DNA from: Candidatus Cloacimonadales bacterium
GTDB taxonomy: Bacteria > Cloacimonadota > Cloacimonadia > Cloacimonadales > JAIOQZ01
NCBI GenBank assembly: GCA_963662655.2
Contig: CAXXTU010000002.1
Coordinates: 832,001-896,000 of the forward strand
Direction: 5' to 3'
Length of the DNA: 64,000 nucleotides
The position numbers and the translations under genes were made by a program. Numbering within the stretch: the first letter of the stretch is position 1; every line of letters begins with the position of its first letter. The notes beneath the pieces were generated by a model. That model saw only the letters and a program-made list of their open reading frames with translations. It searched no databases and was not told where the DNA came from. Below, piece after piece: positions 796-53,022 of the stretch.

Positions 796-917
796 TCCGC
801 GGTCACCTTGGCCCGATCGCGCGATGCTCGCTCCCGGCGTATAACACCACAGCCTCCGCAACGCTCCGGCTGTGAATGAATACGCTCGAGAGCGGATCGA
901 ACCAATCTGAGCGCGGA
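796..917 (-). repeat. copy D of ~125-nt structured hairpin repeat family (divergent)
   Basis: tccgcg..ttgg-cc-cgatc..cgtat-aacac-cacagcc..ggctgtg-aatga-atacg..gatcg-aa-ccaa-tc..cgcgga; same architecture as the copies at 2890 and 20352. Confidence 0.7.
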
Positions 918-919
918 GA

Positions 920-1750
920 CTACAATTCTGTAATCGCCTTCCAGAGCGCAGGGAAGTCGGAGCCCAGGGCTGGATTTTCGGCGGTAAGCAACTGAATCAC
1001 CTTTTCCCCACCTTCGTAGAATGTGACGCGATCGATGGGCTGGCTGCGTTTGGAACTCGCCTCGTTCGCGCCGATTTCTCTGGCCAGGGTGTTTTGCAAC
1101 CAGCGTGCAGAGCCTTCTTTGAACTCCTGCCATGTGAGATACTCCCAGTCGTTAGCCGAAACCAGAGTGCGTATCTCGTTGCGCATTTGAGCGACCTTCT
1201 CGCGATTGCCCTGCTCGCATGCCTCGATCATTTGGATGTACAGGTTTCCCACGGCATCGTTCTCGTACGGGAAGGGGTATTGCAGCTCCCACATTCCGTT
1301 CGTGTGGGCGTACTCTTTCGCTATAAAGAGGCGCTCTTTGAGGTCGCTGTCGCAGGTTGCCGCCTGGTAGCAATGGACGAACTCGTGAAAGACGATGGTC
1401 ATGTCCTCTTTGGTGGAGAAGCTTCTGTCGTCGAGCACACAAGCCATCTCGTAGTTGTGGAAAGGCATGGGAAATGCGGCCATGATGCCATCGGGAAGCT
1501 GCATATTGACGTTTCCCGAATCGATTTTGCGCCAGGAATTGTCCGCTTCTGGTTTGTAGAGTGTGAAGCGCTCACAATTGATCAGACACACCGGATAGAG
1601 CTGCTGCCATGCGGGGTGCAACGTCCGGGCTGTCTGCCAGAGTTTGGTTACCTCATCGAGTTGGGATATGTATTTTTGCTCGTCGATTTTCTGATTCGTG
1701 CACGATGCCAGCAACATGATGATTACGGCTAAAGCTATGATATATTTCAC
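920..1750 (-). CDS. hypothetical lipoprotein with HExxH motif (possible zinc metallopeptidase)
   Basis: Lipobox LASC; FHEFVH motif and downstream KEGSARW. Confidence 0.65.
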   Translation of the reverse strand: MKYIIALAVIIMLLASCTNQKIDEQKYISQLDEVTKLWQTARTLHPAWQQLYPVCLINCERFTLYKPEADNSWRKIDSGNVNMQLPDGIMAAFPMPFHNYEMACVLDDRSFSTKEDMTIVFHEFVHCYQAATCDSDLKERLFIAKEYAHTNGMWELQYPFPYENDAVGNLYIQMIEACEQGNREKVAQMRNEIRTLVSANDWEYLTWQEFKEGSARWLQNTLAREIGANEASSKRSQPIDRVTFYEGGEKVIQLLTAENPALGSDFPALWKAITEL

Positions 1751-2232
1751 TTTATATCACCTCTTTTAATGTAATGATTTAACGTAACCATGCATGACTG
1801 GATGAACTCCGGATCGCCCCAAAGAATGAAGCGACCGCGGTTCGTTTCTTGATCGAAATGGTACTGTAAGCGCGCTTCCGCCTTTGCGTTATCCCGACTG
1901 TTGATAATGGCCAGCAGCGCCTGCGAGACTTCGGCTGCCTCGCCGGCATTCACGAAATCGCAATCCGTGATCGCGCATACGCGGAAGCGGCTGTCAATGG
2001 GCGACGGCGCTCCCTGAATGTGTTCCACCGCCTGCCTGCTCCACGATTCCTCTAGCTCGCCGCTTACGTCCGTGCGTCCGAGCATTCGCTGGATGTCCTC
2101 TTGCGAGATGTGCCATTTCCCGCCGATCTTCACGCCCTCGACAACGCCGTTCTTCAGGTAACGTCGTATCGTCCTGGGGTGCACGGAGAGCATGTTCGCT
2201 GTTTCTTCGATGCTAAGGTAGTTTTGCTTCAT
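1747..2232 (-). CDS. excisionase/MerR-like helix-turn-helix (HTH_17) DNA-binding protein
   Basis: YLSIEETANMLSVHPRTIRRYLKNG..GVKIGGKWHI; GGAGG RBS before the ATG at 2232. Confidence 0.85.
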   Translation of the reverse strand: MKQNYLSIEETANMLSVHPRTIRRYLKNGVVEGVKIGGKWHISQEDIQRMLGRTDVSGELEESWSRQAVEHIQGAPSPIDSRFRVCAITDCDFVNAGEAAEVSQALLAIINSRDNAKAEARLQYHFDQETNRGRFILWGDPEFIQSCMVTLNHYIKRGDIK

Positions 2233-2337
2233 CGGAACCTCCGTGGCCAATATGTCATATATTGTCATATAAAGTCAAGTAAAAGATGACGGAATGCAAA
2301 TGCTTTCAATATCGTTCCATATTTGTAACGATATTCC

Positions 2338-2365
2338 TTGACGTGCAATCCGCGCCTGGTAAGAT
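2338..2365 (+). promoter_or_regulatory. putative sigma70 promoter of umuD
   Basis: TTGACG-N16-TAAGAT; a 9-bp inverted repeat lies immediately upstream (2308-2335). Confidence 0.5.
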
Positions 2366-2381
2366 GGAAGCGGAGGTTGAA

Positions 2382-2870
2382 ATGAAATCACTCGACATTC
2401 AAGCATCTTTGGCTGGGAAGACATGCTGCATCCCGCAACCCGACAGCACGATCGTGTCCATGGGGCCGTGCATTGAAGGAGCGCGTTGGGATATCCCGCT
2501 GCTGGGCGCGTCCCTGCCCGCCGGTTTCCCCTCCCCGGCAGACGATTACATCGAGACCTCGCTGGACGTGAACGAGCTTCTGATCGCGCATCCATCCGCG
2601 ACCTTCTTCGTGCGGGTGGACGGCGACTCGATGATCAACGCAGGCATCAACTCGGGGGACATCCTGATCGTGGATCGCTCCCTCAGTCCGGCAAACAACC
2701 GCATCGTCGTGGCGGCCCTGGACGGCTACCTAACGGTGAAACGCCTGCGAATCGAGAATGGGAAATGGGTTCTCCAGCCGGAGAATCCCTCCTATCCGGT
2801 TATCGAGATCACTGAAGACAGCGACTTCTTCATTTGGGGCGTGGTCAGTTGGGTGCTGCACCGGACGTAG
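2382..2870 (+). CDS. umuD: DNA polymerase V subunit UmuD (S24 autopeptidase)
   Basis: AGFPSPADDY cleavage motif, GDSM catalytic Ser, TVKRL Lys; GGAGG RBS before the ATG at 2382. Confidence 0.93.
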   Translation: MKSLDIQASLAGKTCCIPQPDSTIVSMGPCIEGARWDIPLLGASLPAGFPSPADDYIETSLDVNELLIAHPSATFFVRVDGDSMINAGINSGDILIVDRSLSPANNRIVVAALDGYLTVKRLRIENGKWVLQPENPSYPVIEITEDSDFFIWGVVSWVLHRT

Positions 2871-2889
2871 GGATTGTTTCCCTTCGGCA

Positions 2890-3015
2890 GTGCGTGGCAT
2901 CTTCGCCCGATCTCCACTCCAACGTGGATATACCACATCATGGGACTATCGAACGCAATAATATGATGTGGAACACCACGTTTCCGTATGAGATCGAACG
3001 AATCTACTCGCGCAC
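2890..3015 (-). repeat. copy A of ~125-nt structured hairpin repeat family
   Basis: Aligns end to end with 20352-20476, with compensatory stem changes. Confidence 0.85.
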
Positions 3016-3135
3016 GTTTCGGGCGGGGACAATCGACAATGGCGAAGCGGCAGCATCCTCACTCCTCTTCGCGGGTGTTCCATGTTTGCAACAAATCCTT
3101 GACAACCTTGGCAAAGCTGGTTTCATTGATTCGGA

Positions 3136-4419
3136 GTGAGTATGGAACGCCGCATTTTCGCACTGGTGGATTGCAACAGCTTCTATGTCTCCTGCGAGCG
3201 CGTTTTCGCGCCCCAGTTGAGAAACAAGCCCGTGGTGGTGCTTTCGAACAACGACGGTTGCATTGTGGCACGTTCGCAGGAAGTGAAGGATATAGGGCTC
3301 CCTATGGCCTCCCCCGTGTTCAAGCTGCGGCACCTGATCCGCAAGCATAAAATCCACACCTTCTCGTCCAACTACACCCTCTACGCGGATATGTCGCGGC
3401 GCGTGATGGAAACGCTGGAGACCTTCTCTCCGGAGATCGAGGTCTATTCCATCGACGAAGCGTTCCTGACCTTCACCGGCATGGAGCACATCGATCTCGA
3501 CGAGTACGCCTGCACCATTCGCGATACTGTATTCCAGTGGACCGGCATTCCCGTCTCCGTGGGGATCGGCCCCTCCAAAACGCTGGCGAAGCTCGCCAAC
3601 CGCTATGCGAAGAAGAATCGGCAATGCCGCGGCGCGTTCAACATAACGGATCATCCCCACATCGATGATATCCTCGAGAGCGTGGATGTGGGATCCGTCT
3701 GGGGCGTCGGGAGGAAATACTGCAAGAAGCTCAACCAGGTGGGCGTATTCAACGCCCTTCAGTTGCGCGACCTCCCCGACAGGTGGGTTCGGAGCCAGAT
3801 GACCGTCGTGGGCCTGCGCATGGTGCATGAATTGCGCGGCATTCCCTGCTACGAGATGGAACCGGAGATCGACCCCAAGAAGGGGATCGTCACCTCGCGC
3901 TCGTTCGGAGGACCGCTCGAGGACGAGGAGGAAATCTGCGAGGCGGTCGCTGCGTACGCTGCCAGGGCCGCGGTCAAGCTGCGCAAGCAGGACAGCGTGG
4001 TCGGCTGCCTGACGGTGTTTATCATCACCAATCCCTTCCGGACGGATCAGCCCCAGTACGCGAATTCAGCCTCGTGGAGGATCGAACCGCCCACCGCCGA
4101 CACCCCACAGCTCATAGCCATCGCCAAGAAGCTCCTGCGGCACATCTACCGCCCGGGATTCAAATACAAGAAGGCCGGCGTGATGTTCACCGGAATCCGG
4201 TCCAGCGGAGAGTTCCAGCTCGACGCCTTCCAGACGGCCTTCACCGACGACCGTCGACAGGCGCTCATGCAGACCCTCGATCAGGTCAACCGCCGCTACG
4301 GACTCCACACGCTGTCGTTCGCCTCGGAAGGAATCCACAAACCGTGGGAGATGAAGCGGGAGCAGCTCTCGAAGAGATTTACCACCAACTGGAATGAAAT
4401 ACCGATAGTAAAAGCGTAA
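3136..4419 (+). CDS. umuC: Y-family DNA polymerase V catalytic subunit UmuC
   Basis: ALVDCNSFYVSCE, SNNDGC, YSIDEAF and the C-terminal WEMKRE..S.RFTTNW motif. Confidence 0.95.
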   Translation: MSMERRIFALVDCNSFYVSCERVFAPQLRNKPVVVLSNNDGCIVARSQEVKDIGLPMASPVFKLRHLIRKHKIHTFSSNYTLYADMSRRVMETLETFSPEIEVYSIDEAFLTFTGMEHIDLDEYACTIRDTVFQWTGIPVSVGIGPSKTLAKLANRYAKKNRQCRGAFNITDHPHIDDILESVDVGSVWGVGRKYCKKLNQVGVFNALQLRDLPDRWVRSQMTVVGLRMVHELRGIPCYEMEPEIDPKKGIVTSRSFGGPLEDEEEICEAVAAYAARAAVKLRKQDSVVGCLTVFIITNPFRTDQPQYANSASWRIEPPTADTPQLIAIAKKLLRHIYRPGFKYKKAGVMFTGIRSSGEFQLDAFQTAFTDDRRQALMQTLDQVNRRYGLHTLSFASEGIHKPWEMKREQLSKRFTTNWNEIPIVKA

Positions 4420-4425
4420 GGCCGA

Positions 4426-4510
4426 GTTCGCGAGGATATTCGTTCGCCTGAAGACCGAAGATGTGTTATATCCACGTTGGAGGGATTCACCGGACGAAGA
4501 TGCCGCGAAC
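4426..4510 (+). repeat. copy C (inverted, internally deleted) of the hairpin repeat family
   Basis: Reverse complement of 4460-4482 matches 2917-2939 at 22/23 nt; termini resemble those of copies A and B. Confidence 0.8.
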
Positions 4511-4522
4511 GTCCCGAGCTAA

Positions 4523-4552
4523 TAAAAAAAGCCCATCCGCTTGGGATGGGCT
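4523..4552 (-). terminator. intrinsic terminator downstream of tRNA-Asn
   Basis: agcccatcc/ggatgggct stem with an A-run on + (U-run on -). Confidence 0.8.
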
Positions 4553-4587
4553 CAATTTATTCACTGCACTTGGTGCAGATTTTTGTC

Positions 4588-4662
4588 TGGCTCCTGAGGA
4601 GGGATTTGAACCCCCGACCTGGTGGTTAACAGCCACTCGCTCTACCACTGAGCTACTCAGGA
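4588..4662 (-). tRNA. tRNA-Asn(GTT)
   Basis: TCCTGAGTAGCTCAGTGGTAGAGCGAGTGGCT-GTT-AACCAC...GGTTCAAATCC..CAGGAGCCA cloverleaf. Confidence 0.97.
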
Positions 4663-4747
4663 ACGCCGCTAAGGACTTCGCTAAGAAATTAAATCCGTGA
4701 TTCTCTGTCAATCAATTTTTCGTGTTTTTTTTGATCATTCCGGGGCA

Positions 4748-5698
4748 TCATTGCGTATCTTCTAGTGACGATTGAAAATGCTCCGGCGATTTAGTGAACC
4801 GATCGACGAAATCATTGCTCATCTGATACAGCGTGGAGGTGTCGTCGTTAAGCTTGAGAATCAGATTACTGTTCTCCTCGCTCTTGATCTGAGCGACCTG
4901 GAACCGGGTTTTAGCGCCCGTTTTCTGTGTGACGGTCACATCGAGAACCGGATCGTCGAACGCAGACTGCCAATCGTCCCACTCGTTGTCCCGGAAGCGT
5001 CCGGAACGGCCTTTCTCCAGTACGTTGAGGATTTTCAGCAATTGCCGGTTCGTCCGGGTAACTGCGAAATCGTTGTTGGCATCGTGGAATACCCAGGACG
5101 TGTCCGTCGCTGTGATCGAGTAAGCGTTCCTCGAATACTTCACGTCAATCGCCTCTATGGTTTCGGGAACAATCTCCAGAATCTCTTTCTTCCGCCATGT
5201 TGCAAGCCTCGGATCGATCTTGTAGAGGACATTCTCTTCAAACTGGTACACGATGGGGCTGTCGGTCTTGCGGACGTTGCTGTAGCTCGGGTTGTCGCTG
5301 GAGCCGATCACGATGCTGGAAAGCAGGTTTCCGGCATTGTCGTACAATTCGAGCGATTTACCCTTCGCAGCCGACACATTGAAAGCATCGTGGGACGATT
5401 CGTTCTCCGCCAGCGGAATGCTGGAGGCCCGGCCCTTGATCACATAACTGAAGAGGTCGCCTACTTTTCGAGCACCAGCCGGGAATTCCATCGGCTGCGT
5501 GATCATCCATGTTCCCTGGCGGTTCTCGAGAACCAGCGTGTCGCCTTTATCGAACATCTTTACCTTCGCGATCTGCGTTGAATCCACATCGATGATACGG
5601 AAGAACGTCTCGCGCTCCTTCCCCGTCGTTTTCACGATGATGAAGATGGCAACCAGAGCGAGCAGGATTACTAGATAAATAACGTTTTTCTTATCCAT
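4748..5698 (-). CDS. DUF4340-like membrane-anchored protein of the Gld-type ABC operon
   Basis: N-terminal TM, WMITQPMEFPA and WRKKEI motifs; last gene of the gldAFG-like operon. Confidence 0.75.
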   Translation of the reverse strand: MDKKNVIYLVILLALVAIFIIVKTTGKERETFFRIIDVDSTQIAKVKMFDKGDTLVLENRQGTWMITQPMEFPAGARKVGDLFSYVIKGRASSIPLAENESSHDAFNVSAAKGKSLELYDNAGNLLSSIVIGSSDNPSYSNVRKTDSPIVYQFEENVLYKIDPRLATWRKKEILEIVPETIEAIDVKYSRNAYSITATDTSWVFHDANNDFAVTRTNRQLLKILNVLEKGRSGRFRDNEWDDWQSAFDDPVLDVTVTQKTGAKTRFQVAQIKSEENSNLILKLNDDTSTLYQMSNDFVDRFTKSPEHFQSSLEDTQ

Positions 5699-7421
5699 AA
5701 TACTCCCCTAACTTCTTACGTTTCTTCCTCTCGACGCTGTACTGGATCAGGCCCAGCAGCAGTAGCAACACGGAAGGAAGCACATAGTTGATCCACTTGA
5801 CCACGAGCTTCAGATCGTTCTCACGCTGACGCATCAGCTTGGATTCCTCCAGAAGACGGCTCGCGCCCTCCGGGGTTTTGGCGTCCACGCCGCGCGTATC
5901 GGACGATTTGACGAAGCGGCTGATGTCCAACGGGCTGAACTCGACTTCGCGGGAACGAAGACGAATGAGGTCTTCATTCTGCGTCATGCCGTCCAATGCG
6001 TTAATCACGAAAATCTGATTGGGAGACACGCCGCGCTGACCTGAATTCTTGAGGAACTCGGCGTCGGAAACGAGGAGAATCTGGCCCTTGTCGGTGTGGT
6101 TGAGCGAATCCGCGAATGCGGGGGATTCCGCATCCGAGTAGTAGCTATCGAACGGGCCGTGGAAGAGCGCTGCGACGAGCTGCTTGCCAACGTACCCTTT
6201 GTTGCCTTGATTGAATTTCTCGATATCCTGCTCGAACATATAGTACGAGGAGGTCGCGGTCTGCTCGGACGACCACAGCAGCGGATCGAAGGTTTGACCC
6301 GGCTTTACGAGCGATGTGTCGATCGGCGAGGTGAAATACATGATCAGCCGGCTCAGGTTCGAAACGATGGGATTATCCTTGTTCACTTCGTTGATGATCG
6401 GAACATACGGGTAATCTGTCACGGCCCCGAAGGGACTCTTTGCTTGCGCGCTGATGCGATCGAGGATGATCTCGTCCTTCATTCCCACACCCCAGTGCTT
6501 CATCGCGTCCAAAAGGTTGGATTTGATCGGGGAAACAGCCTGGTCGACCTGCAACTGGTCCTGGAAAAGCAGGACGTTGCCGCCGGTCATGAGGTATTGA
6601 TCGATGTTGAACAACTGGTTCATGGCCAGCGAGTCGGTCGTGCCGGTGAAGATCAGCGCGGTGATGTCTTCGTCCAGTGGCATGTTCAGGTCGGTCGAGC
6701 GCACCTCGTAGTTGTCCTGAATCATCTGCTTGACTTCATACATCTCGTCAGCCTTCTGCATGACCTGTTCCTTGAGATTCGTGTCGTACTGCATGCGCTG
6801 CAATATCTGCGGAATCTGGTTTTCGCGTACGAACGGCAACGCCTTGTGGATCATCATCGCCATGTCGATGTTTTCGTAGATCGCTACGACCGGAAGCTTG
6901 TTCGCGGTGAGGCGTTTGATTTTGGATGTAATCTCGTATTCGAGGCCGCGTGTGTTCTGAACCACGGGGATCACTTCGCTCTTGCCGTGGTAAAGCGCTA
7001 CGAGGCCCAGGAACGCGTCGCGAGCGACTCGCTTGTCATTTTCCCAGTAATTGACTTGAACAGGCGAGATACCCTGCTTCTTGGCCTCTTCCGTGAATTC
7101 CACCTCGTTGGTGGGATCGATGAACTCGAAGTAGAGTCGTCCACCCGAGGCCGAACGGTATTCGGAGAGCAAATCCTTCGTATATTGGCGCACATCGGAA
7201 AGCTCCGGTGGGAGATCCTTGGTGAAGTACGCCTTGACCACCAGGCGGTCTTCCAGCGAATTCATCAGGTCGTCGCTGACTTTCGAGAGCGTGTAAACCT
7301 GGCCGCGCGTGAGGTCGATCCTCGTATAGATGTTCAGCGACAACAGGTTGATGAAAACGATGATGCCGACGAACAGCAGAAGGTTGATCCATAACGATTT
7401 GGTGTTTCTAATCTTTACCAT
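5691..7421 (-). CDS. GldG-family ABC transporter auxiliary component
   Basis: RIDLTRGQVYTLS, FEFIDP and LEYEITSKI motifs; N- and C-terminal TMs. Confidence 0.88.
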   Translation of the reverse strand: MVKIRNTKSLWINLLLFVGIIVFINLLSLNIYTRIDLTRGQVYTLSKVSDDLMNSLEDRLVVKAYFTKDLPPELSDVRQYTKDLLSEYRSASGGRLYFEFIDPTNEVEFTEEAKKQGISPVQVNYWENDKRVARDAFLGLVALYHGKSEVIPVVQNTRGLEYEITSKIKRLTANKLPVVAIYENIDMAMMIHKALPFVRENQIPQILQRMQYDTNLKEQVMQKADEMYEVKQMIQDNYEVRSTDLNMPLDEDITALIFTGTTDSLAMNQLFNIDQYLMTGGNVLLFQDQLQVDQAVSPIKSNLLDAMKHWGVGMKDEIILDRISAQAKSPFGAVTDYPYVPIINEVNKDNPIVSNLSRLIMYFTSPIDTSLVKPGQTFDPLLWSSEQTATSSYYMFEQDIEKFNQGNKGYVGKQLVAALFHGPFDSYYSDAESPAFADSLNHTDKGQILLVSDAEFLKNSGQRGVSPNQIFVINALDGMTQNEDLIRLRSREVEFSPLDISRFVKSSDTRGVDAKTPEGASRLLEESKLMRQRENDLKLVVKWINYVLPSVLLLLLGLIQYSVERKKRKKLGEYYG

Positions 7422-7430
7422 GTCCCGCTC

Positions 7431-8144
7431 CTATTTCCATTTTCTCGTTTCCATCACCACGACGGCAAGTCGCAGGAACAGAACGGTTAGCGTGATAAAG
7501 AATATGAGGTCTCTTGTATCGAGAACGCCTCGTGCCATCTTGTTATAATGATACAGCACGCTCACGTACTGAAAGAATCCCGCCAGATAGCTGGGCATGT
7601 AGCTCAGCATGTATTGCAGCAGGAAGAAGAAGAACGCGATCGCGAAGCTGATGATGAACGCGATGATCTGGTTGTCCGTGAGGCTGGAAGCGAAAATGCC
7701 GATCGCGCAGTAGACCGCTCCGAGGAGGAGAAGTCCGACATACCCGCAGATGATCGGACCGAAATCGATGTTCTTGCCCAGAACCATGATGGTAATCAGA
7801 TGCACGAATGTGAAGATCAGCCCCAGGCCGATGATCCTGAGCGCCGCGACGAATTTACCGATCACGATGTCGCTGTCGTTCAACGGTAGGGTTGTCAGGA
7901 TTTCCAGCGTTCCGTTGCTCTTCTCGCGTGCGATGGTTCCCATGGCAATCGCGGGGATGATGAACATGAAGATCGTCGGAACAATGTTGAAAAGCAGCAT
8001 CAGGGATGCCTGATTGTATTTGAACAGCTCGTTCGAGAACGTCACACCCGCGAACAGAAGGAAAACGATCAGTACGATGTACGCCGCGGGGGACTTTATA
8101 TATCCGTTGAATTCCTTTCGGTTGATGATTGAAGCGTAACTCAT
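7431..8144 (-). CDS. GldF-like ABC-2 permease
   Basis: EKSNGTLEILTTLP, IGIFASSLTDNQI and RGVLDTRD motifs. Confidence 0.9.
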   Translation of the reverse strand: MSYASIINRKEFNGYIKSPAAYIVLIVFLLFAGVTFSNELFKYNQASLMLLFNIVPTIFMFIIPAIAMGTIAREKSNGTLEILTTLPLNDSDIVIGKFVAALRIIGLGLIFTFVHLITIMVLGKNIDFGPIICGYVGLLLLGAVYCAIGIFASSLTDNQIIAFIISFAIAFFFFLLQYMLSYMPSYLAGFFQYVSVLYHYNKMARGVLDTRDLIFFITLTVLFLRLAVVVMETRKWK

Positions 8145-9121
8145 CCCTCAACCTCCTCTTTCTTCGTTTGACGCGCCTGCGCCACGCCTTCTTCCTCGAC
8201 GGTCAGGTTGCGGAACACGTCCTCCAGACTCGCGAGCTCACGATACATTTCCAGAAGCGCCCAGTTGCGCGTCTTGATGAAGTTGTAGATCGATTCGCGC
8301 CTGTCTTCGCCGCTGGGGTACTCGAGGGTAACGTGATGGATACCGTCGTCATCGGTCGTGTACTTGAATGTCTGGATGCCCGGAATCGCCTCGGTGATCT
8401 CCGATATCTCGTTTTCGTCTGCCTTCAGCGTCAGCATGAGCTTGGTTTGTCCCTGGAAGCTCGCCTTGAGTTCCTCCGTGCTGCCGTCGGCAACGATCCT
8501 GCCTTTGTTGATGATCACAATGCGATCGCAAACCGCCTGCACTTCCTGCAGGATGTGGCTGGAGATGATGAGGGTCTTGTTCTTGCCGAGTTCCTTGATC
8601 AAGGAGCGGATTTCAAGAATCTGATTCGGGTCCAGACCGGTGGTCGGTTCGTCGAGGATCAGAATCTTGGGATCGTGGATGATCGCCTGAGCCAGGCCGA
8701 CGCGCTGGCGGTAACCCTTCGACAGTGTGCGAATCTGGCGATTGACCACACCGTCCAGGCCGCATTTGGCAACGACGCGACGCAGCGTCTTCTCGAAGTC
8801 TTCCGGCTTGATGTTGCGCGCTTCGGCGATGAATTTCAGATAGTCGTAAACGATCATGTCTGTGTAAAGGGGGTTGCTTTCGGGAAGATATCCGCAAAGC
8901 TGTCGAATCTCACGGGAGTTGTCCAGAATGTTGAGGTTGCCCACCTGGATGTTCCCCTGCGTGGGGGAAAGATATCCGGTCAGGATTCTCAGCGTGGTGG
9001 ATTTGCCTGCGCCGTTTGGCCCAAGGAATCCAAGAATTTCGTTATCCCGGACCTCGAAATTGATGTGATCGACAGCCCGAACATCCCCGTAATTCTTTAC
9101 CAGATTTTGGATTTGAATCAT
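8141..9121 (-). CDS. GldA-like ABC transporter ATP-binding protein
   Basis: Walker A GPNGAGKST, signature LSKGYRQR, Walker B ILDEPT. Confidence 0.93.
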   Translation of the reverse strand: MIQIQNLVKNYGDVRAVDHINFEVRDNEILGFLGPNGAGKSTTLRILTGYLSPTQGNIQVGNLNILDNSREIRQLCGYLPESNPLYTDMIVYDYLKFIAEARNIKPEDFEKTLRRVVAKCGLDGVVNRQIRTLSKGYRQRVGLAQAIIHDPKILILDEPTTGLDPNQILEIRSLIKELGKNKTLIISSHILQEVQAVCDRIVIINKGRIVADGSTEELKASFQGQTKLMLTLKADENEISEITEAIPGIQTFKYTTDDDGIHHVTLEYPSGEDRRESIYNFIKTRNWALLEMYRELASLEDVFRNLTVEEEGVAQARQTKKEEVEG

Positions 9122-12013: not shown

Positions 12014-12133
12014 GTTATCCACAGTGTCCTTCGACTCCGCTCAGGATGACACACTGTGGATAACTGCTTACATTTCTGACTGTTGCAAAATAATTGTGTC
12101 ATCCTGAGCGGAGTCGAAGGACAACAATTATTT
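12014..12133. repeat. inverted pair of REP-like palindromes (GTCCTTCGACTCCGCTCAGGATGACA)
   Basis: Copies at 12026-12051 and 12097-12123; the first is flanked by two perfect TTATCCACA boxes. Confidence 0.9.
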
Positions 12134-12256: not shown

Positions 12257-12277
12257 CGCCCGGATTTGCTCCGGGCG
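12257..12277 (-). terminator. putative terminator
   Basis: cgcccgga/tccgggcg hairpin just after the stop of 12297-14774. Confidence 0.55.
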
Positions 12278-12296
12278 CTGAAAATGCCGATGCGGT

Positions 12297-14774
12297 CTAT
12301 TTCAGGAGCATCATTTTACCCATGAAAGATTGCCCGTTGAATTCGACCCGATAGTAGTAATTTCCCGTTGGAAGCGTTTCACCTTTTGGATTTCTGCCAC
12401 TCCACACGATCGAATGATCGCCTTCTCCGACGACATTATCCCAGATATTGCACAGTTTGCGACCACGCACGTCAAAGAGAGTGATCGTCATGCGTCCCCC
12501 CTTCTCCGTGTAGACGCGAATGGATGTCGACGGATTGAATGGGTTGGGATAATTACCAAGCAGACTCGTTTTCCGGGGCGCTTGACCCTCGGTACAACCG
12601 GTGAAATAGATATCGACCGACACGGGATCCGACTCCACACCTCCCGGGTATAAAGCCGTCACATCAACATAGTAGGTGTGTTGATTCTCGGGATCGAGGA
12701 TGTCGTAGGTAAGTTCGGTGGTGCTTCCGACAAGCTCGGAATCGACATATATCCGGTACGATTCCAGATCGTACGTACCTTCCCACGGCTCTTCCCAATT
12801 CAGACGGATGTATTCGTTGCTAACGTCGTAGGTCAGGTTGTTCGGCGGGAAATAGAGCGCGTACAGGAATTCGATCTGGACGGGCGCTGATTCCTCGGCT
12901 TCGTAGAGGGCTGTTACCGCGACGTTGTAGGTTTCACCCTGCGCAAGCTCGAAGAACGCCCAGCTCAAGTTCGGAGTCTGGCCGTCGAGCTCTCCGTCGA
13001 GGTAAACCTTGTACCCGACCAGTGGAGAGGTGCTGCCTTCTTGCGGCTCCTGCCAGTAGCAAACGACGTCCGGACCGATGTTGGCGTACAGACCGCGCGG
13101 CGGATTGAGGACATGACCGTCGATCTCCAGATTGCGATAATAGCTGAACGTTCCGTCATAGCAGCCTACAACTATATCCAGATCGCCGTCGGCATCAATA
13201 TCCACCAGAGCCGGCGTTGCGTTTTGGTCTGCCTCCATCTCGCTGAAAAGCATGCTGTTCTCCTGCCAACCCATGTTGTTCGCGAAGTAAGTAACCTCTC
13301 CGAACAGGTTCCCTGCGGCGAAATCGTAGTCTCCGTCCCCATCGAAATCGGCGAAGGCCGGAACGCAGTTCGAGCCGATGTCGATCGTGCCGAAATATCC
13401 GCTGATATCCACCCAGTTCGGTTCCGAAGCGGTTCCCTGATTTTCAAGGTAGCGCATTTCGCCATCTTCCCCACCCACTGCGAGATCGAGGTCGCCGTCG
13501 AAATCCATGTCCAGGAGTCTCGGTGAGGACCACCCAGAATTGGAGTAGCCGGTAAAGGTGCACGGTACTTCAACGAGGTTCAATCCGCTGTTGTTCCGGT
13601 GGTAGTAGAGATTCCCCGATAGATCACCGATGATCGCGTCGGGATACCCGTCGTCGTTGACATCGCCAATAGCAACGGCTGCGTAGATCGAGTGATCGAT
13701 ACTGGCGAAGAGGCTGCTATCCTCCTGCCAGGCGGGGCAGTTCGCGTTGCCGATGTTCTCGTAGTATTTGATGCTCCCCAGGTTGCTTCCGCTGATCATA
13801 TCCAGGTCGCCGTCGTCGTCGAAATCGTAGAACACAGGATTGCTCGCTCCGCCGACATCGATCACCCCGCCAAACAGCGCGGTGTTCTCGCTCCAGTTGG
13901 GAGCCGTACCTGAGCCAGTGTTCTGCCAGTAACACAGAGGCCCGCCGGCGGTGCCGTAAATAAGATCGTACACACCGTCCCCATCCAGATCGACGAGGTC
14001 GGGAGAATTCCAGTATGTGTCGGTTCCGAGACCCGAGAATGCTGTGGCGTTCTCCTGCCAGTCGGGATTGGATGCGGATCCGTTATTCTCGTAATAGACA
14101 AAAAGGTGGCTGTCCCTTCCACACAGGATATCCTGATCCCCGTCGCCGTCGAAATCACGGAATACCGGGTAGGCGTACAGCCCAATATCTCCGACGAAAG
14201 TCATGTCCGATTGGTTGAATTGCGCGTTCTGAGCAGTGCCCGTGTTCTCGTAAACGAGCACGCCGCCGTCTTCGCTCATGCCGACAACCAGATCGAAGTC
14301 GTCGTCGTCATCGATGTCGGCCAGATCCGGGACGGGATTGCTGCCGACTGCAAGACTACTGAACACGCCGGGAACGATCGAGAAATCCGGGGACGTAGCC
14401 GTTCCGTCGTTGCGGTAGAAGTTGATGCCGGTATATCCTCCGGTGATGAGATCGAGATCGCCATCCGCATCGATATCGACGCAAACGCCGACTTCCGCGT
14501 TGAGCGACGAGACGCCGGAGAATATGTCCGCTCCGCTCGAGAATGCGGGTGATGAAGCGCTTCCCGTGTTTTCGAAATACATGGGAGATTGTCCTGAGCT
14601 TCCCAGGATCAAATCCTGATCGCCGTCGCCGTCGAGATCGGCAAAACGCGGCTGCGAAAACGTCAGGCTCGGGATTCCGCTTGGATTGAATACGCCATCA
14701 TCCTGCTCCCAAGGCTGAGCCATTAGAAAAGACGATAGTAACAAAAAAACTGCAATAATGGTTGATTTCTTCAT
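12297..14774 (-). CDS. secreted FG-GAP/VCBS-repeat protein with FN3 domains and FlgD-like (T9SS-type) C-terminal domain
   Basis: Signal peptide, many DxDxDGDxDL repeats, NYPNPFNPST C-terminal domain. Confidence 0.88.
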   Translation of the reverse strand: MKKSTIIAVFLLLSSFLMAQPWEQDDGVFNPSGIPSLTFSQPRFADLDGDGDQDLILGSSGQSPMYFENTGSASSPAFSSGADIFSGVSSLNAEVGVCVDIDADGDLDLITGGYTGINFYRNDGTATSPDFSIVPGVFSSLAVGSNPVPDLADIDDDDDFDLVVGMSEDGGVLVYENTGTAQNAQFNQSDMTFVGDIGLYAYPVFRDFDGDGDQDILCGRDSHLFVYYENNGSASNPDWQENATAFSGLGTDTYWNSPDLVDLDGDGVYDLIYGTAGGPLCYWQNTGSGTAPNWSENTALFGGVIDVGGASNPVFYDFDDDGDLDMISGSNLGSIKYYENIGNANCPAWQEDSSLFASIDHSIYAAVAIGDVNDDGYPDAIIGDLSGNLYYHRNNSGLNLVEVPCTFTGYSNSGWSSPRLLDMDFDGDLDLAVGGEDGEMRYLENQGTASEPNWVDISGYFGTIDIGSNCVPAFADFDGDGDYDFAAGNLFGEVTYFANNMGWQENSMLFSEMEADQNATPALVDIDADGDLDIVVGCYDGTFSYYRNLEIDGHVLNPPRGLYANIGPDVVCYWQEPQEGSTSPLVGYKVYLDGELDGQTPNLSWAFFELAQGETYNVAVTALYEAEESAPVQIEFLYALYFPPNNLTYDVSNEYIRLNWEEPWEGTYDLESYRIYVDSELVGSTTELTYDILDPENQHTYYVDVTALYPGGVESDPVSVDIYFTGCTEGQAPRKTSLLGNYPNPFNPSTSIRVYTEKGGRMTITLFDVRGRKLCNIWDNVVGEGDHSIVWSGRNPKGETLPTGNYYYRVEFNGQSFMGKMMLLK

Positions 14775-14882
14775 TGTACCCCCTATGTAGCCGAATACAA
14801 CAATGCGTTCGAATCCTTCAACGTGTCAATCAGTTTGTGCGGGGAGTAGTTGCGAAGTATTGCATGGAATGAGGGGAAAAAC

Positions 14883-14911
14883 AATCCCCCTTGGCGACAC
14901 CGAGGGGGATT
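14883..14911 (-). terminator. intrinsic terminator
   Basis: aatccccct/agggggatt stem downstream of 14930-15883. Confidence 0.7.
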
Positions 14912-14929
14912 ATAATTAGCAAGCAGTCT

Positions 14930-15883
14930 TTACTTGATGATCTGAGCGCCTTTGATCAATGTTGTCGTGAATTGAGCGTTGAGCTTCTTTGCAATCTTCA
15001 TGTTGAGGATAACGTTACCTTCCTTGTTCTGAGCGAGTTCGATGTTGGAAGGTTTCGTGCCACCCAAGATTTTGATGGCCGCTTTTGCAGCCCAGCTTCC
15101 TTGCTCGTCGGCAACCTTGGTGAAGCCGATCAACGCATAGTTGGCCATCCAGTCGTAGATGGTACCGATAGGAATGGCCGCGTTCTCGAGGACGAATTTC
15201 TCCGCTTCAGCGTCGTTCCAGCCGCTGATCCCCGCGTTGTTTCCAACGATCAGCATGTCAACGCTCGATTGCAGAGCGGCAAATCCCTTCTTCCATTCTT
15301 CGAAGTTCTGAACATAGATTTCTTCCATCTGGAGCCCGAATTTCTTGGTGTAATTCTCGGCTTCCTTCTTCGCGGTGAAGTTGTCCGCTTCGATGTATCC
15401 GATTTTCTCCCCCTTGGCATATTTCTTCAGCATCTCGACAAGCTGTTTGATGGGTGCGACCTCGATCATGCCGGTTGTGTTCTTGTAGGGCATTCCATAC
15501 CCGGAAGCATCCCAGTTCACTCCACAGAAAACAAAGGGAATGTCGGAATCTTTGTAATACTGCATGATCACATACTTGGCTGCGTTGTCGTCGGCTGTAA
15601 TAACCACGTCGGGTTTCCAGGAATCGATGGTTTCCTTGACCATCTTTGCCGCTTTCTGCTTGAATTCTTCGGATGGATTGTTCTTCGTGTCCATGCGGAC
15701 GATCTTAAGCGTAGCTCCGCTTGGCTTGATGATGCTTTGGACTCCGTTGGTAACGCCGTCGCTCCACGCGTAACCTTCATGATAGGAATCGACAAAGAGC
15801 ACCTTCTTACCTGTGTAATCCTGGGCAATGAGTAATGATGCGGTGATTGAAAGCAAAATTGCGAGAACAAGAATTCTTTTCAT
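14930..15883 (-). CDS. ABC-type substrate-binding protein (ABC_sub_bind-like)
   Basis: Signal peptide; VDSYHEGYAWS, KPDVVITADDNA and VFCGVNWD motifs. Confidence 0.85.
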   Translation of the reverse strand: MKRILVLAILLSITASLLIAQDYTGKKVLFVDSYHEGYAWSDGVTNGVQSIIKPSGATLKIVRMDTKNNPSEEFKQKAAKMVKETIDSWKPDVVITADDNAAKYVIMQYYKDSDIPFVFCGVNWDASGYGMPYKNTTGMIEVAPIKQLVEMLKKYAKGEKIGYIEADNFTAKKEAENYTKKFGLQMEEIYVQNFEEWKKGFAALQSSVDMLIVGNNAGISGWNDAEAEKFVLENAAIPIGTIYDWMANYALIGFTKVADEQGSWAAKAAIKILGGTKPSNIELAQNKEGNVILNMKIAKKLNAQFTTTLIKGAQIIK

Positions 15884-15925
15884 AGGAACGCTCCTTTTGA
15901 GGAATTTTTTATGTAAGAATCGATT

Positions 15926-16882
15926 TTATTTAATGATTTTCGCACCTTTCAACTTCAGTGTGTCGAAATGAATCCCAAGTTTTGCGGCAATCGACATGTT
16001 CAAGCAGACAAAGCCCTGTTTGTTCTCTGTGATCGGGATGCTAGATGGAGGAGTACCGCGAAGGATCTCCAACGCGGTTTCTGCCGCCCAGCTTCCCTGC
16101 TCCGAGGCTTTTTTCGAGAAGCTGACCAATGCGTAGCTTTCCATCCACTCGAGATTTGTGCCGCTTGGTATTTCGGTGTTTTCGAGAACAAACGTCTTCG
16201 CTTCTTGATCGTCCCAACCGATCGTATTCACGCTGTTACCGATAATCAGTATATCCACGTTGGACTGAAGCGATTTGAAGTTGGTTTTCCACTGGTCGAA
16301 ATCCGTTACGAAAACCTCTTCAAGTTCGATCCCGAACTTCTTCTGCAGGTTTTCTACTTCCTTCCGCGCACTGTACGTATCGGACTCAAGGAATCCGATC
16401 CTGTCGCCTTTCGCGTATTTTTGTAGCATTTTAACCAGAAGCCCGATTGGGCTGACCTCCAGCATTCCCGTGGTGTTGTCGAAGGGCAGGCCATATACGG
16501 AAGCATCCCAGTTGATGCCACAGAAGACTACCGGTGTTTCCGAATCCTTGAAAAAGGGAACAATCAAATAATTCGCAGCATTGTCATCCGATGCGATGAC
16601 GACATCCGGCTTCCACGCATCGATTACCTTTTTCGCTTCGAGCGCTGCGTTGATTTTGAATTCTTCAGACGTATTGTTCTTTGTATCCATGCGGAAAATT
16701 TTCAGCTCTGCTCCGGAAGGATCGATTACGCCCCTTACTCCGGCAGTTATACTATCGCTCCAAGCATACCCGGCATGATACGAGTCAACATAGAGTATTC
16801 TTTTTCCGACAAAATCAAGTGTGTAACTCGCTTGAACGCAGATATATATAAAGAAAGTTATCCATATGAATCGCTTCATCAT
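15926..16882 (-). CDS. ABC-type substrate-binding protein, tandem paralog
   Basis: Collinear and highly similar to 14930-15883. Confidence 0.85.
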   Translation of the reverse strand: MMKRFIWITFFIYICVQASYTLDFVGKRILYVDSYHAGYAWSDSITAGVRGVIDPSGAELKIFRMDTKNNTSEEFKINAALEAKKVIDAWKPDVVIASDDNAANYLIVPFFKDSETPVVFCGINWDASVYGLPFDNTTGMLEVSPIGLLVKMLQKYAKGDRIGFLESDTYSARKEVENLQKKFGIELEEVFVTDFDQWKTNFKSLQSNVDILIIGNSVNTIGWDDQEAKTFVLENTEIPSGTNLEWMESYALVSFSKKASEQGSWAAETALEILRGTPPSSIPITENKQGFVCLNMSIAAKLGIHFDTLKLKGAKIIK

Positions 16883-16963
16883 ATTATCCTTGCATTTGCG
16901 TATGTAGATAGTTTATGATGAAATCGATAGGTGACAAATGAAAAGTATTGAGTGGAAAAAAAT

Positions 16964-17037
16964 TGGCTGGGATGGAAGGAGTCGAACCCTCACACACGGA
17001 GCCAGAATCCGCTGTCCTACCATTAGACTACATCCCA
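16964..17037 (-). tRNA. tRNA-Gln(CTG)
   Basis: Anticodon arm GCGGA-TT-CTG-GC-TCCGT; GGTTCGACTCC T-arm; CCA end. Confidence 0.95.
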
Positions 17038-17059
17038 GCACGAATATTTAATATATATA

Positions 17060-17134
17060 TGGCAAGGCCGGGAGGATTCGAACCCCCGAATGCCAGGACC
17101 AAAACCTGGTGCCTTACCGCTTGGCGACGGCCTT
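17060..17134 (-). tRNA. tRNA-Gln(TTG)
   Basis: Anticodon arm CCAGG-TT-TTG-GT-CCTGG; CCA end. Confidence 0.95.
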
Positions 17135-17140
17135 GCATAA

Positions 17141-17234
<94 letters not shown>

Positions 17235-17256
17235 AGCAGCATATAAAGATCTTAAG

Positions 17257-17342
17257 TGGCGGAGGATGAGGGACTCGAACCCCCAAGGGCAAAGCCCGGC
17301 GGTTTTCAAGACCGCTGTCTTACCAATTAGAACTAATCCTCC
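17257..17342 (-). tRNA. tRNA-Ser(TGA)
   Basis: Anticodon arm GCGGT-CT-TGA-AA-ACCGC; variable arm; G discriminator. Confidence 0.93.
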
Positions 17343-17666
17343 ACGTCTGTATCGAGTGATACAAAAAAAACTGACGGCTTCTGATGTCAACGATTTTTTT
17401 CACTTTTCCGCAATGAAATCCCCCGCCTGGGCCGGCAATCCCGCTGTGGAATTCGTGAACTCTTTACCATTGCTTTACATAGAGTCTATTCTGTGGCATG
17501 TCTCCCGTCAAATGAATATATCTTCATTATGTCTTTCCCAAGAAACTGTGATGTTGTCGGTGATCGTGAGTTAGGCTTCTCCACCTTCCAGCGATTGCCG
17601 TAATGCACGATATCGAGCATCCCTTGTACGGAAGCGCACAAAAGGCACCTTGAGCCGACGTCTATC

Positions 17667-17838
17667 TGTCATCCTTGAGCTGTGATTTTGTTCATAAAAT
17701 CGAGTCCATCAACAGAGTCGAAGGGGCATTCAATGATGATTTCATCCTTCGACTCCGCTCAGGATGACAGAGAAAGAAAACTCAGGATGACAGAGAAAGA
17801 ATACTCAAGATGACAGAGAAAGAAAACTCTGGATGAAA
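17667..17838. repeat. REP-like cluster with 23-bp tandem half-REP units
   Basis: Insertion-bearing copy at 17667-17724, intact copy from 17745, then ctcaggatgacagagaaagaaaa-type units at 17758, 17781, 17804 and a partial unit at 17827. Confidence 0.88.
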
Positions 17839-17956
17839 CGTTTCATTAGATGCTTATCCACTTAGTTTGTAAGTGATCCAAATTTTCTCATTGACATCCG
17901 GCATTTACGAATCAGATTATTAGAAAAACTTTTTACCACGCAGAAAGGGATTGTGG

Positions 17957-19750
17957 ATGGCAAAAACCGGGTTCTTCTACGGCATCTCTCAGGAGCTATC
18001 GAGAATACGCATCGCCAGCTTGCGTTGCGTTGACGACCAGCTATACATCGATCAACTTCTTGAAGAATCGCTACCCGTCGAAGAGCATCAAGAAGAGGAA
18101 GATTCCTTCTTCAACGATTACGACTTCGGAGCTCCAGCTCCATCCGGCGATTCTCCAGCCGAATTCGAGACCCTCGATGATGATCAACAGGCAGAGATTG
18201 CCGAAGAAACCATGACCAGCCAGCATATCCTGCGAAACCTGATCGACAGCCTTTCCATGCAAGATGCGAAGATCGCCTTGAATATGGATGTGTTCAATGT
18301 GGAATACAAGATCATTCGTACCGGCAATAAGAAGGGACGCAAGAAACTTCTGGAGCAGGTTCGCCGCGCTTTCGCCGATAAGGGCGCTCCGCAGAGAGCT
18401 TTCACCTATTTCGATCAGAATGACGAAGCGATTATCGGCGTAAAGAACTCCGGGCGGCTTGAACTCCTCGAGAGATTCATAGACGCGAGCCAGGTAACTC
18501 CCCGAAAGTTCCTCCAGTACCGAAGCCTGCAAACCAATGAAATGGCCCTCATCAACGCTTTGCGCTATCACTACACGTTGGGCGACGATGAAATCAGCGC
18601 GATCTTCTATATCGGAGAGGACTACAGCCGTGTCATCCTGATGCAGGGATTTCAGTTCATCAACGCCCTTCCGATCATCAACGAAGGCGCGGAATCGGAG
18701 AACGTGGTCGTTCGCGTCCACAGTCGTTTCCTTTTGGAGCGCCAACAGAGCGCTCTACCCCACCTGGATAGAATCTTCCTTGCCGGCAGTAAAATGAGCC
18801 GCAGCAAGCTGGATTATCTACGCGAGAGTGAATCGGATATCAAGGTTGAATATCTTCTGCCGCGGGCTTTTATGCATGACGATCTCGACTTTACCGAAGA
18901 AGAGCTTTCCTCATACATTATCCCTATATCGCTTGCGACGAATATCGCCAAACCAAAGCATCCTCTCCTGATTCACTCCGATTTCCTGCCGAAGTTCATT
19001 CTGGAGCAGCAAAACGTCCTTTCGATCAGCGTTCCGGGATTCATGGTGCTACTCATTTTATTGATGGTGTCGTACTTGTTTCTCGAGAGCACCTTCTCAT
19101 CTTTGAGCGCGAATTCGGCGGTAAATCTGGAGATTGAAATGATCGAGAATCAGGTCGATATCAATCATCAGGTTCTCGATTCCCTGGCGACGATCACCCG
19201 TCAGATCGAAAAGCATGAAGCGGACATGGGATATTACCGCAAGTATATTGGCAACAGCAATCTATGGCATTACATCATGGACCGTCTGGGCGATGAATTC
19301 CAAGTGAACTCTCTCACCTGGGCTTCGAACCTGATGAAGGAGGATGGCAGAATCCGCCTTCAGGGAAGCACGACCTCACGGAACAACATCGTTCGTTTCT
19401 CCCGCATCTTTCCGGGTAGCGAGGTGAAGAAGATCGAACAGCGAGAGATCGAGGATTACACCGTTTGGGACTTCGAGATTTATTTCGATATGCCCGATCC
19501 CCTGGAATCGCAGCGAGAAGATCAGGAACTGCGCAAGAAGGCCAAGGGCACGTCCACCCCATTTGCGGAGTACGACGAAGCGGATTCGAGCAAAATCTAC
19601 GTTGTCCAGAAGGGAGATAATCCCGCAACCATCGCCAGGAAGCTTGGCGTCAGCGTTGAGCGTATCGAGCAGATCAACAACCTGAAATCCAAAGAGACGA
19701 AAGGAAAGCGTATCCTGCTCGTGTTCCCGGGGCAAAAACTCCGCTACTGA
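17957..19750 (+). CDS. PilM/PilN-like membrane protein with C-terminal LysM domain
   Basis: Degenerate actin-like N-terminal region, single TM, coiled coil, PilN-like RIRLQG segment, LysM YVVQKGDNPATIARKLGVS. Confidence 0.6.
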   Translation: MAKTGFFYGISQELSRIRIASLRCVDDQLYIDQLLEESLPVEEHQEEEDSFFNDYDFGAPAPSGDSPAEFETLDDDQQAEIAEETMTSQHILRNLIDSLSMQDAKIALNMDVFNVEYKIIRTGNKKGRKKLLEQVRRAFADKGAPQRAFTYFDQNDEAIIGVKNSGRLELLERFIDASQVTPRKFLQYRSLQTNEMALINALRYHYTLGDDEISAIFYIGEDYSRVILMQGFQFINALPIINEGAESENVVVRVHSRFLLERQQSALPHLDRIFLAGSKMSRSKLDYLRESESDIKVEYLLPRAFMHDDLDFTEEELSSYIIPISLATNIAKPKHPLLIHSDFLPKFILEQQNVLSISVPGFMVLLILLMVSYLFLESTFSSLSANSAVNLEIEMIENQVDINHQVLDSLATITRQIEKHEADMGYYRKYIGNSNLWHYIMDRLGDEFQVNSLTWASNLMKEDGRIRLQGSTTSRNNIVRFSRIFPGSEVKKIEQREIEDYTVWDFEIYFDMPDPLESQREDQELRKKAKGTSTPFAEYDEADSSKIYVVQKGDNPATIARKLGVSVERIEQINNLKSKETKGKRILLVFPGQKLRY

Positions 19751-19751
19751 G

Positions 19752-20285
19752 CTATTTGATAATCACGCTCGTCTGCAATACCATATTCTCGATGAAGTCG
19801 CGAAACAGGTTGAAGCGGACTTTGTCATCCTTTACGAGGGCTGTTTCCTGCTGCAAGCTATCCGCATTGATCCTGAATGTTGCATCATCCGCAAACACAA
19901 TCTTCGTGTAGAGGTCCGTGTTGATCGGGAAGAATATCTTCACCCCGGCGTCTTTTGCGTCCCGTTCAATCGTCAGGCGTTCGCTTTCAATTGTCACAAT
20001 CTCGTCATCCAGGCCAATTACGAGCTCCATGGGTGGTTCGATTACCTTCAATCCAGTGACATCACAGACAATATACCACATCGAGCGCACTCCTTTTTTC
20101 TCGAACTGAAGGAAGAAGCTCGTGTTCGCGTCTGCGATCGTGGGTTTTCCCGTAAAAGCGGCGTCGTTGGAGTAGTAGATTTGCACACCTCGTTCAGAAT
20201 CTTCAACGTGATGGACATCGAATTGCGTGGTTGAGCATCCTGCCAATAGGAGGATACTTGCGAGTAAGATCAAGATTGTCTTCAT
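19752..20285 (-). CDS. hypothetical lipoprotein
   Basis: Lipobox LAGC; GAGGAGG RBS. Confidence 0.75.
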   Translation of the reverse strand: MKTILILLASILLLAGCSTTQFDVHHVEDSERGVQIYYSNDAAFTGKPTIADANTSFFLQFEKKGVRSMWYIVCDVTGLKVIEPPMELVIGLDDEIVTIESERLTIERDAKDAGVKIFFPINTDLYTKIVFADDATFRINADSLQQETALVKDDKVRFNLFRDFIENMVLQTSVIIK

Positions 20286-20351
20286 AATTGCCTCCTCGCG
20301 ATGAATTGGATGCATTTTTTATGCCTTTCATTCTGCTGAGCAATGTGCGAT

Positions 20352-20476
20352 GTTCGTGGAATCTTCGCCCAATCCCCTTACCGACGTATATATACCACAC
20401 CATAGGACTATCGAGCGCAATAAAATGGTGTGAAACAATACGTCGGTAAGGGGATTGAACGAATCTTCTCACGAAC
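20352..20476 (-). repeat. copy B of ~125-nt structured hairpin repeat family
   Basis: Perfect 20-bp IR at 20370-20389/20438-20457 plus inner and outer stems; aligns with 2890-3015. Confidence 0.88.
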
Positions 20477-53021: not shown

Positions 53022-53022
53022 T

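Follow-up and report, generated by a model that had tools for sequence, protein, structure and literature searches.

How a fold is kept up while its sequence turns over, and what moves repeats of the ERIC, bcr1 or attC type that have no transposase, is to our knowledge an open question. It is raised by a stretch of 64,000 nucleotides (nt) of a Candidatus Cloacimonadales genome (contig CAXXTU010000002.1, positions 832,001 to 896,000; the window hereafter), in which four intergenic hairpins share one rod-like fold with differing stems. A preliminary description, made from the sequence alone, had taken them for a family of four copies and left three readings side by side: an RNA element of 3' untranslated regions, a small non-autonomous mobile element, or a single-strand DNA recombination site. 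The hairpins belong to a genus-specific family of 144 copies in this genome, oriented with replication rather than with transcription. The reading that we favour, at a probability of roughly one half, is that of a single-strand DNA repeat, non-autonomous and belonging to the ERIC/bcr1/REP class, that is recognised by its structure and follows an attC-like strand logic.

Size, range and fold of the hairpin family

The source genome, G000 (3.81 Mb, 98.95% complete; window at G000:C2:832001-896000), was compared with three other genomes of the same genus, G001, G002 and G003. Searching G000 with arm profiles turned up 148 hits for the left arm and 150 for the right, of which 133 paired and 123 were kept above the score cut-off; another 21 copies, divergent or partial and including D and C of the window, came from additional profiles. 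The family therefore counts 144 copies rather than four, 123 of them two-armed, spread evenly along the chromosome at 5-13 per 200 kb. All four window copies lie where they had first been placed, and the complementary stems quoted for them, as well as the apical word shared by A and B, are found in the sequence. They are listed here with the better-folding strand of each, which we call F, and with their score under a covariance model built from 42 copies.

796..917, F on the minus strand: copy D, divergent subtype, inner loop halves swapped between the arms, 36.1 bits
2890..3015, F on the minus strand: copy A, standard 126-nt type, between umuD and umuC, 121 bits
4426..4510, F on the plus strand: copy C, 85 nt, inverted, inner-left box and apex deleted, 36.6 bits
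20352..20476, F on the minus strand: copy B, standard 125-nt type, 38 nt past the selD stop, 127 bits

In a 141-genome sample of the phylum, scanned under stricter filters with 23 candidates scored per genome, matches of the covariance model are confined to G000, G001 and G003 (0 of 138 others). A BLAST search of 41 relatives returned the four genomes of the genus and none of the 37 others, and copies were found in 0 of 4 same-family genomes of other genera. Four of 34 genome-scan loci outside the genus had no score under the model; pattern scans gave 0 and 1 loci in viral contigs and 0 and 43 in metagenomes, and the model scored 0 of these 44. BLAST against plasmids and phages gave no match to the family. 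Among the four genomes of the genus the copy number varies (one 12-letter word occurs 86, 32, 32 and 48 times). In these searches the family was thus met in a single genus, and we regard it as both real and genus-specific.

It is also apparently undescribed so far. Sequence similarity to known repeats was tested through Rfam alone, where the window yields five tRNAs only at the gathering threshold and 11 other copies, searched at E<=1, yield 12 weak matches, all far under the gathering scores and mostly to miRNA hairpins; the earlier remark that the hairpin was not recognised as a known family holds, for Rfam, in these scans. A literature search, mostly without subscription papers, found no description of this hairpin family.

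The fold was examined copy by copy and by covariation. Under RNA energies the F strand and its complement reach -69.7 and -56.6 kcal/mol in D, -63.9 and -46.5 in A, -75.0 and -62.0 in B, and -36.4 and -23.5 in C, so that the strand preference first noticed by eye (minus for D, A and B, plus for C) is confirmed in RNA terms; as DNA the gap is small or reversed. Under DNA energies each of the four F strands beats 200 of 200 shuffles (z from -3.2 to -11.6). Across the family, F folds better in 122 of 123 copies with RNA energies and in 117 of 123 with DNA energies.

The covarying stems are borne out on an alignment of 42 copies (two from the window and 40 hand-picked, standard-length copies of the 123), in which both sides change in 41 of 48 pairs. 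Pairing cells amount to 92.3%, against 75.9% in shuffles (0 of 500 reach the observed value) and 31-45% in slid controls; these figures are not probabilities, the structure being read off the same alignment and the copies being related. Mismatches within the middle stem favour F as well: over 912 positions, G.T occurs 41 times vs 9 for A.C, G.A 88 vs 7 for C.T, and G.G 26 vs 3 for C.C. Covariation and F-favouring mismatches together support the proposal of a selected single-strand structure.

Read from the foot of F, the rod starts with a terminal stem of 6 bp, whose pairs covary among all four pair types and which is closed by a purine mismatch. An outer box follows, made of a bulged A, three pairs and a tandem GA/GA, and then a stem with two conserved T.G pairs in tandem; the middle stem (10-13 bp) is free in sequence. 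The inner box is pseudo-symmetric, with GTG-N-loop-N-CAC on both arms around a 4x5 loop, and its loop is TGTT opposite TATAT in 109 of 111 parsed copies, a count favoured by parsing on these very anchors. The apex measures 0-290 nt. In the D-type and in short subtypes the inner-loop halves have changed arms, which would fit a putative two-fold symmetric binding site. SECIS elements and kink-turns were considered and dropped; their loop geometry differs and the copies are not tied to sense strands.

In a subtype of 180-184 nt the apex holds another repeat, which also occurs alone. This module of ~72 nt stands by itself in the window at ~31,000 and 31,090 and at G000:C2 772.3k, 2446.3k, 2512.1k and 3135.5k; it is found in tandem in a 396-nt copy and in long arrays in G003.

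Exchange of shells, orientation and turnover

The terminal stem, the middle stem and the apex vary independently of one another, and both arms of a stem move together. Among 111 parsed copies of the 123, arm-to-arm similarity correlates at 0.74 for the terminal stem and 0.51 for the middle stem, and between the three shells the correlation is 0.04-0.08, with a weak residual middle-apex linkage (0.09-0.19) in a finer permutation test. Near-identical middle arms go with unrelated apices in 15 of 27 pairs, and near-identical apices with unrelated middles in 14 of 43; discordant arms are found in 2 of 59 and 2 of 66 pairs. The middle stem and the apex have the same nearest neighbour in 20 of 111 copies, and one apex is combined with four different middles. 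Orthologous sites tell the same: at one site of G002 and G003 the flanks and terminal stem are shared and the middle and apical stems differ on both arms, at a second a long and a short subtype occupy the same place, and the site after iorB has four subtypes, one per genome. An old site thus stays where it is and has its interior exchanged. Gene conversion ending in the conserved boxes combined with selection for pairing, or exchange between folded hairpins, would both explain the shells; one case resembles plain conversion from a copy 3.7 kb away, flank included.

The orientation of the copies was referred to the replichores. By cumulative skew, the origin lies near 2768 kb and the terminus close to 808 kb; parS-like sites gather in the interval 2.66-3.02 Mb, and one of them, at 2,772,744, is perfect. 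F is the leading-strand template, i.e. the lagging-strand sequence, in 103 of 139 copies on C2, and with close pairs set aside 95 of 123 copies keep this polarity (p=1e-9). Stretches of the relatives have the same polarity (14 of 14 copies in 800 kb of G001, 9 of 9 in G002, 16 of 19 in G003).

Gene positions are those of our own hexamer gene caller (2848 genes), with no curated annotation. The genes next to the window copies are the following.

146..721, plus strand: iorB, indolepyruvate/pyruvate oxidoreductase beta-type subunit (PF01558)
920..1750, minus strand: lipoprotein-like gene, no Pfam family, stop 3 nt from copy D
2364..2870, plus strand: umuD-like peptidase S24 (PF00717)
3142..4419, plus strand: umuC-like polymerase (PF00817, PF11799, PF13438)
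4591..4662, minus strand: tRNA, from the Rfam search
20515..21558, minus strand: selD-like selenophosphate synthetase (PF00586, PF02769), named from its AIRS domains and sequence

Two terminator-like hairpins were read from the sequence, one downstream of iorB (~745-778) and one belonging to the tRNA (~4520-4555), which abuts copy C. Farther on, at 21,805-26,295, the window encodes a secreted protein of 1496 amino acids with PKD-like repeats and a short motif repeated many times.

The preliminary description had F, in D, C and B, as the sense strand just past a stop codon, and this stands for the three. It does not extend to A, where F is antisense to both umuD and umuC, nor to the family, in which 71 of 123 copies have F sense to the gene upstream and 42 have it antisense to both neighbours. 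At tandem junctions F is sense in 19 of 61 (p=0.004), and at convergent junctions it is still lagging-biased (35 vs 15). The orientation of F tracks replication rather than transcription. The neighbours of copies are ordinary, housekeeping genes, mostly with several between one copy and the next. The distance to the stop codon has a median of 27-32 nt on either strand, and every copy lies at least 27 nt from a start codon. Convergent junctions are enriched (52 of 123 copies vs 148 of 1015 wide junctions), divergent ones are depleted (10 of 123 vs 271 of 1015), and the close pairs, less than 60 nt apart, are tail to tail in 8 of 8. The idea that copies seek terminators was rejected: by side, 13 and 8 of 123 have one, vs 145 of 811 after ordinary stops.

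Copies have been gained and lost within the genus. The junction after selD (B site) is syntenic and copy-free in 3 of 3 relatives, the junction downstream of umuC (C site) has no copy in 3 of 3, and the umuD-umuC junction of G002 (A site) has none either. G002 and G003 are 75-95% identical and mostly collinear over the compared stretches, and copies are gained and lost between them. Filled and empty orthologous sites therefore exist (A, B, C and G002/G003), none of them resolved to the base. At the D site, on the other hand, the gene conserved across the four genomes is iorB, and a copy with F antisense to it is present in 3 of 3 relatives. Contigs compared with the window have no informative joint at copies. 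Insertion into a pre-existing palindrome was also considered and set aside, there being no excess of empty palindromes. On a small contig, G002:C10 (13-27k), two copies of the G000 subtype lie in direct orientation 10 kb apart, among genes that are equally far from G003 and G001, which would make it a transferred block or a mis-binned contig.

The search for a partner enzyme

A search for a co-occurring recombinase or HUH transposase had been suggested; no partner was found in G000 or at the relatives' loci that were examined. The neighbours of all 144 copies were read by eye (proteins up to 300 amino acids), and Pfam was scanned family by family rather than over the whole proteome. G000 has no match to Y1/RAYT (PF01797), IS110 or DUF559; for IS91-type Y2 there was no match, and the control gave none either. 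PDDEXK_3, the HUH motif and the multi-copy proteins of G000 yielded no partner enzyme for the hairpin. Six tyrosine recombinases (PF00589) are present in G000, of XerC, XerD and prophage type by reading, and three in G001. No integron integrase was seen among the tyrosine recombinases, as judged by eye without an IntI model, and only XerC and XerD are common to the four genomes. No convincing dif-like site was found near the terminus. ISL3 ends adjoin some copies and do not lie within them; at the ends of the IS110 loci examined there is no copy.

Other hairpin repeats of the genus do have genes among them. The RAYT, GIY-YIG and DUF559 genes examined in the relatives are flanked by repeats of their own; for RAYT and DUF559 in G001-G003 these are tandem hairpin repeats, and one RAYT gene lies next to xerC in G001 and G003. 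In the window, a GIY-YIG nuclease gene with an internal stop (~52,800-53,480) is flanked by inverted 24-nt hairpin repeats that occur 44 times on C2, with more copies in the window at ~12,050-12,100 and 17,770; intact GIY-YIG genes with the same type of repeat are found in G001 and G002. G003 has a short GIY-YIG open frame inside a 23S rRNA-like sequence, possibly an intervening sequence. Of the 17 IS110-family copies in G002, which are of two types, one type lies inside a short GC-rich hairpin repeat, and one examined copy of the second stands beside a GIY-YIG-type repeat. Weak scores of 21-22 bits under our model lie on DUF559 repeats and lack the words of the hairpin family.

Further mobile or formerly mobile sequences were met in G000. 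Mu-like transposable prophage regions, four to five in number and related (family by reading), lie at C2 1-10k, 477-510k, 2729-2758k, 3290-3322k and 1615-1619k and at C1 11.5-20.6k, and there are 12 ISL3-like and 8 IS3-like copies, also named by reading. A frameshifted tyrosine recombinase of ~188 amino acids at C2 701.8-702.4k has intact relatives in G002 and G003. At C2 981.0-982.4k an AT-rich island holds a single reverse transcriptase gene, interrupted by one stop and probably of defence type.

The favoured reading and its rivals

Of the three original readings, that of a small non-autonomous mobile element is the best supported, by gain and loss at syntenic junctions. We also count in its favour the number of copies, the covariation, the mismatches and energies that favour F, the orientation, the junction context and the exchange of shells, as well as the presence in the genus of further hairpin repeats among which RAYT, GIY-YIG and DUF559 genes lie. 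In the mechanism that we propose, a trans-acting, structure-specific nuclease or recombinase would read the two mismatch boxes on folded F, by analogy with RAYT reading REPs and IntI reading attC. New copies would enter at the replication fork, and their orientation would arise because F is incorporated as nascent lagging strand or, alternatively, because copies with F exposed on the lagging-strand template are lost. Shell exchange would be recombination or gene conversion ending in the conserved boxes, its unpaired products being repaired or purged. The enzyme may have been lost from G000, which for its other repeat families, too, has no RAYT or DUF559 match and just the broken GIY-YIG gene.

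Several observations weigh against this mobile-repeat reading. There is no clean empty site, and the turnover between G002 and G003 takes place inside larger mosaic repeat arrays. Target duplication is absent, the direct-repeat lengths equalling those of shuffled pairs. No two copies are identical (nearest neighbour median 85%, maximum 96%), so nothing points to a burst under way at present. All four genomes have retained a copy at the iorB site, and this would agree with a host function as well. The strand gap is bigger under RNA than under DNA energies; with the latter, A and B have a gap of only ~1 kcal/mol, and in D it is the complement that comes out lower (-35.5 vs -35.9). Another repeat family of G000 is also strand-biased (30 vs 14), and the bias alone is therefore not special. 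Finally, no copy lies within ~1.5 kb of the candidate enzymes: the RAYT loci (8 fetched of 17 matches, in five relatives), IS110 (17 of 17 G002 copies, 8 by the covariance model and 9 by motif search), reverse transcriptases (3 relatives' loci), tyrosine recombinases (16 relatives' loci), GIY-YIG (11 of 11 loci) and DUF559 (8 of 8).

The family can be set beside known repeats, as far as the available portions of the sources describe these. ERIC/IRU (~127 bp), Correia, RUP and Nezha elements are alike in size, in having a single long stem-loop and in their many intergenic copies near gene 3' ends, and ERIC/IRU and other miniature inverted-repeat transposable elements (MITEs) are alike in their patchy presence at orthologous sites (PMC3184786, PMC2267715). 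Unlike MITEs, the Cloacimonadales hairpin has neither a fixed terminal inverted repeat, since its terminal stem covaries, nor a target duplication (TA..TA flanks occur in 0 of 123 copies), and it has strict one-strand folding, replichore polarity and independently exchanged shells. The bcr1 repeat of the Bacillus cereus group, in what could be consulted of PMC3184786, is likewise dispersed and confined to one lineage, and has non-conserved positions as well as compensatory base-pair changes; it is a cruciform of two stem-loops with 5-bp direct repeats, whereas ours is one rod without direct repeats. REP, REPIN and BIME repeats with RAYT are alike, in the part of PMC3733652 available, in conserved mismatches, in the preference for convergent and tandem junctions, in tail-to-tail doublets and in mosaic arrays, which for the Cloacimonadales hairpin are seen in the relatives. 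In contrast to REP, this hairpin is four to five times longer, it lacks the GTAG or CGTC tag, which no end position shows in more than 6 of 123 copies, and the RAYT genes examined have short repeats of their own on either side instead. Having no fixed ends, duplication, tag, core or cognate gene, the family belongs to none of the compared systems, attC included.

The attC sites are at the basis of the first rival, in which the copies would be dispersed attC-like sites where a tyrosine recombinase (XerC/XerD or a lost integrase) recombines folded F strands. We hold this to be unlikely, and no less so its extension, according to which an exchange of both arms would swap hairpin heads at the conserved mismatch boxes and an occasional exchange of one arm would shuffle multi-gene blocks of the chromosome, with no integrase gene of its own. 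The likeness is one of anatomy and orientation: the attC sites of sedentary chromosomal integrons are described, in the accessible parts of PMC5371416 and PMC5027507, as conserved in structure over sequence, with an unpaired central loop, a variable terminal structure and a purine-rich folding strand carried by the leading-strand template; the Cloacimonadales hairpin in turn has pseudo-symmetric half-sites, an unpaired inner loop, a free apex and a purine-rich F on the leading-strand template. Nested shells are also in keeping with such sites, as is the deletion from the left inner GTG to the right inner GTG that copy C shares with two other G000 copies, but the latter involves just 3-4 nt of common sequence, and slippage could have produced it.

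Synteny was examined against 800 kb of G001, and it is broken at 33 of the 39 copy-bearing junctions of G000. Stratified by orientation and net gap, the enrichment has a Mantel-Haenszel odds ratio of 4.2 (p=0.0008); by total gap it drops to 2.5 (p=0.076). Breaks are frequent, besides, at wide junctions that lack a copy (60 of 95 tandem ones). Copies are moderately enriched at synteny breaks, which is suggestive only. The genus is strongly rearranged as a whole: between G000 and G001, most of whose proteins are 60-95% identical, 139 of 547 junctions in the 800 kb are breaks. G002 and G003, by contrast, are largely collinear across most copies.

There are also differences from attC. The RYYYAAC/GTTRRRY core is found at the hairpin foot in 0 of 123 copies, no recombinase looked by eye like an integron integrase, and co-oriented arrays, each site behind one cassette gene, are absent: the copies are dispersed beside housekeeping genes in either orientation to the upstream gene. 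The hairpin has a second mismatch box and a longer rod than attC, and xerD adjoins a copy in G000 alone. Of the recombination-site reading in the preliminary description, the attC-like anatomy and orientation stand, and the attC core and the integron integrase are missing.

The second rival, an RNA element at transcript 3' ends (a stabiliser, an RNase site or a terminator substitute) or a family of small RNAs, seems to us quite unlikely, although the tandem GA/GA and the G.U pairs suit an RNA helix, the strand gap reaches 13-17 kcal/mol with RNA energies, and in the 71 copies with F sense the median distance from the stop is 27 nt. Moreover, PMC3184786, in the portion available, reports transcripts of ERIC and bcr1 repeats. 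It is the orientation that speaks against an element of the 3' untranslated region, with F antisense to both neighbours in more than forty copies and sense in fewer than a third of tandem junctions; at convergent junctions, where either strand is available, F follows replication. At the conserved iorB site F is antisense and a terminator-like hairpin precedes the copy, terminators at convergent junctions are as frequent with a copy (26 of 57) as without (56 of 140), and no Rfam family was matched.

Very unlikely, finally, are domesticated polar protein-binding hairpins for replication or nucleoid organisation, selected by the host and homogenised by gene conversion, to which the even spread, the replichore polarity in 4 of 4 genomes, the iorB site kept in all four and the intact structure without identical copies would be suited, but which fit poorly with the absence from the 138 other phylum genomes and the four same-family genomes of other genera, with copies that differ in number between genomes and are gained and lost, and with a parS half-site look-alike that matches the inner-left box and is not kept in the relatives.

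The mobile-repeat reading thus remains the one that we prefer, and the family has a value of its own. A single genome supplies more than 100 natural variants, in which the shells can be separated, the two mismatch boxes are near-invariant and the functional strand is clear, and the substrate of an enzyme still to be found is thereby described with unusual precision. If instead the shuffling of chromosome blocks between attC-like sites were true, the family would represent a new route to genome rearrangement, the logic of attC without an integron.

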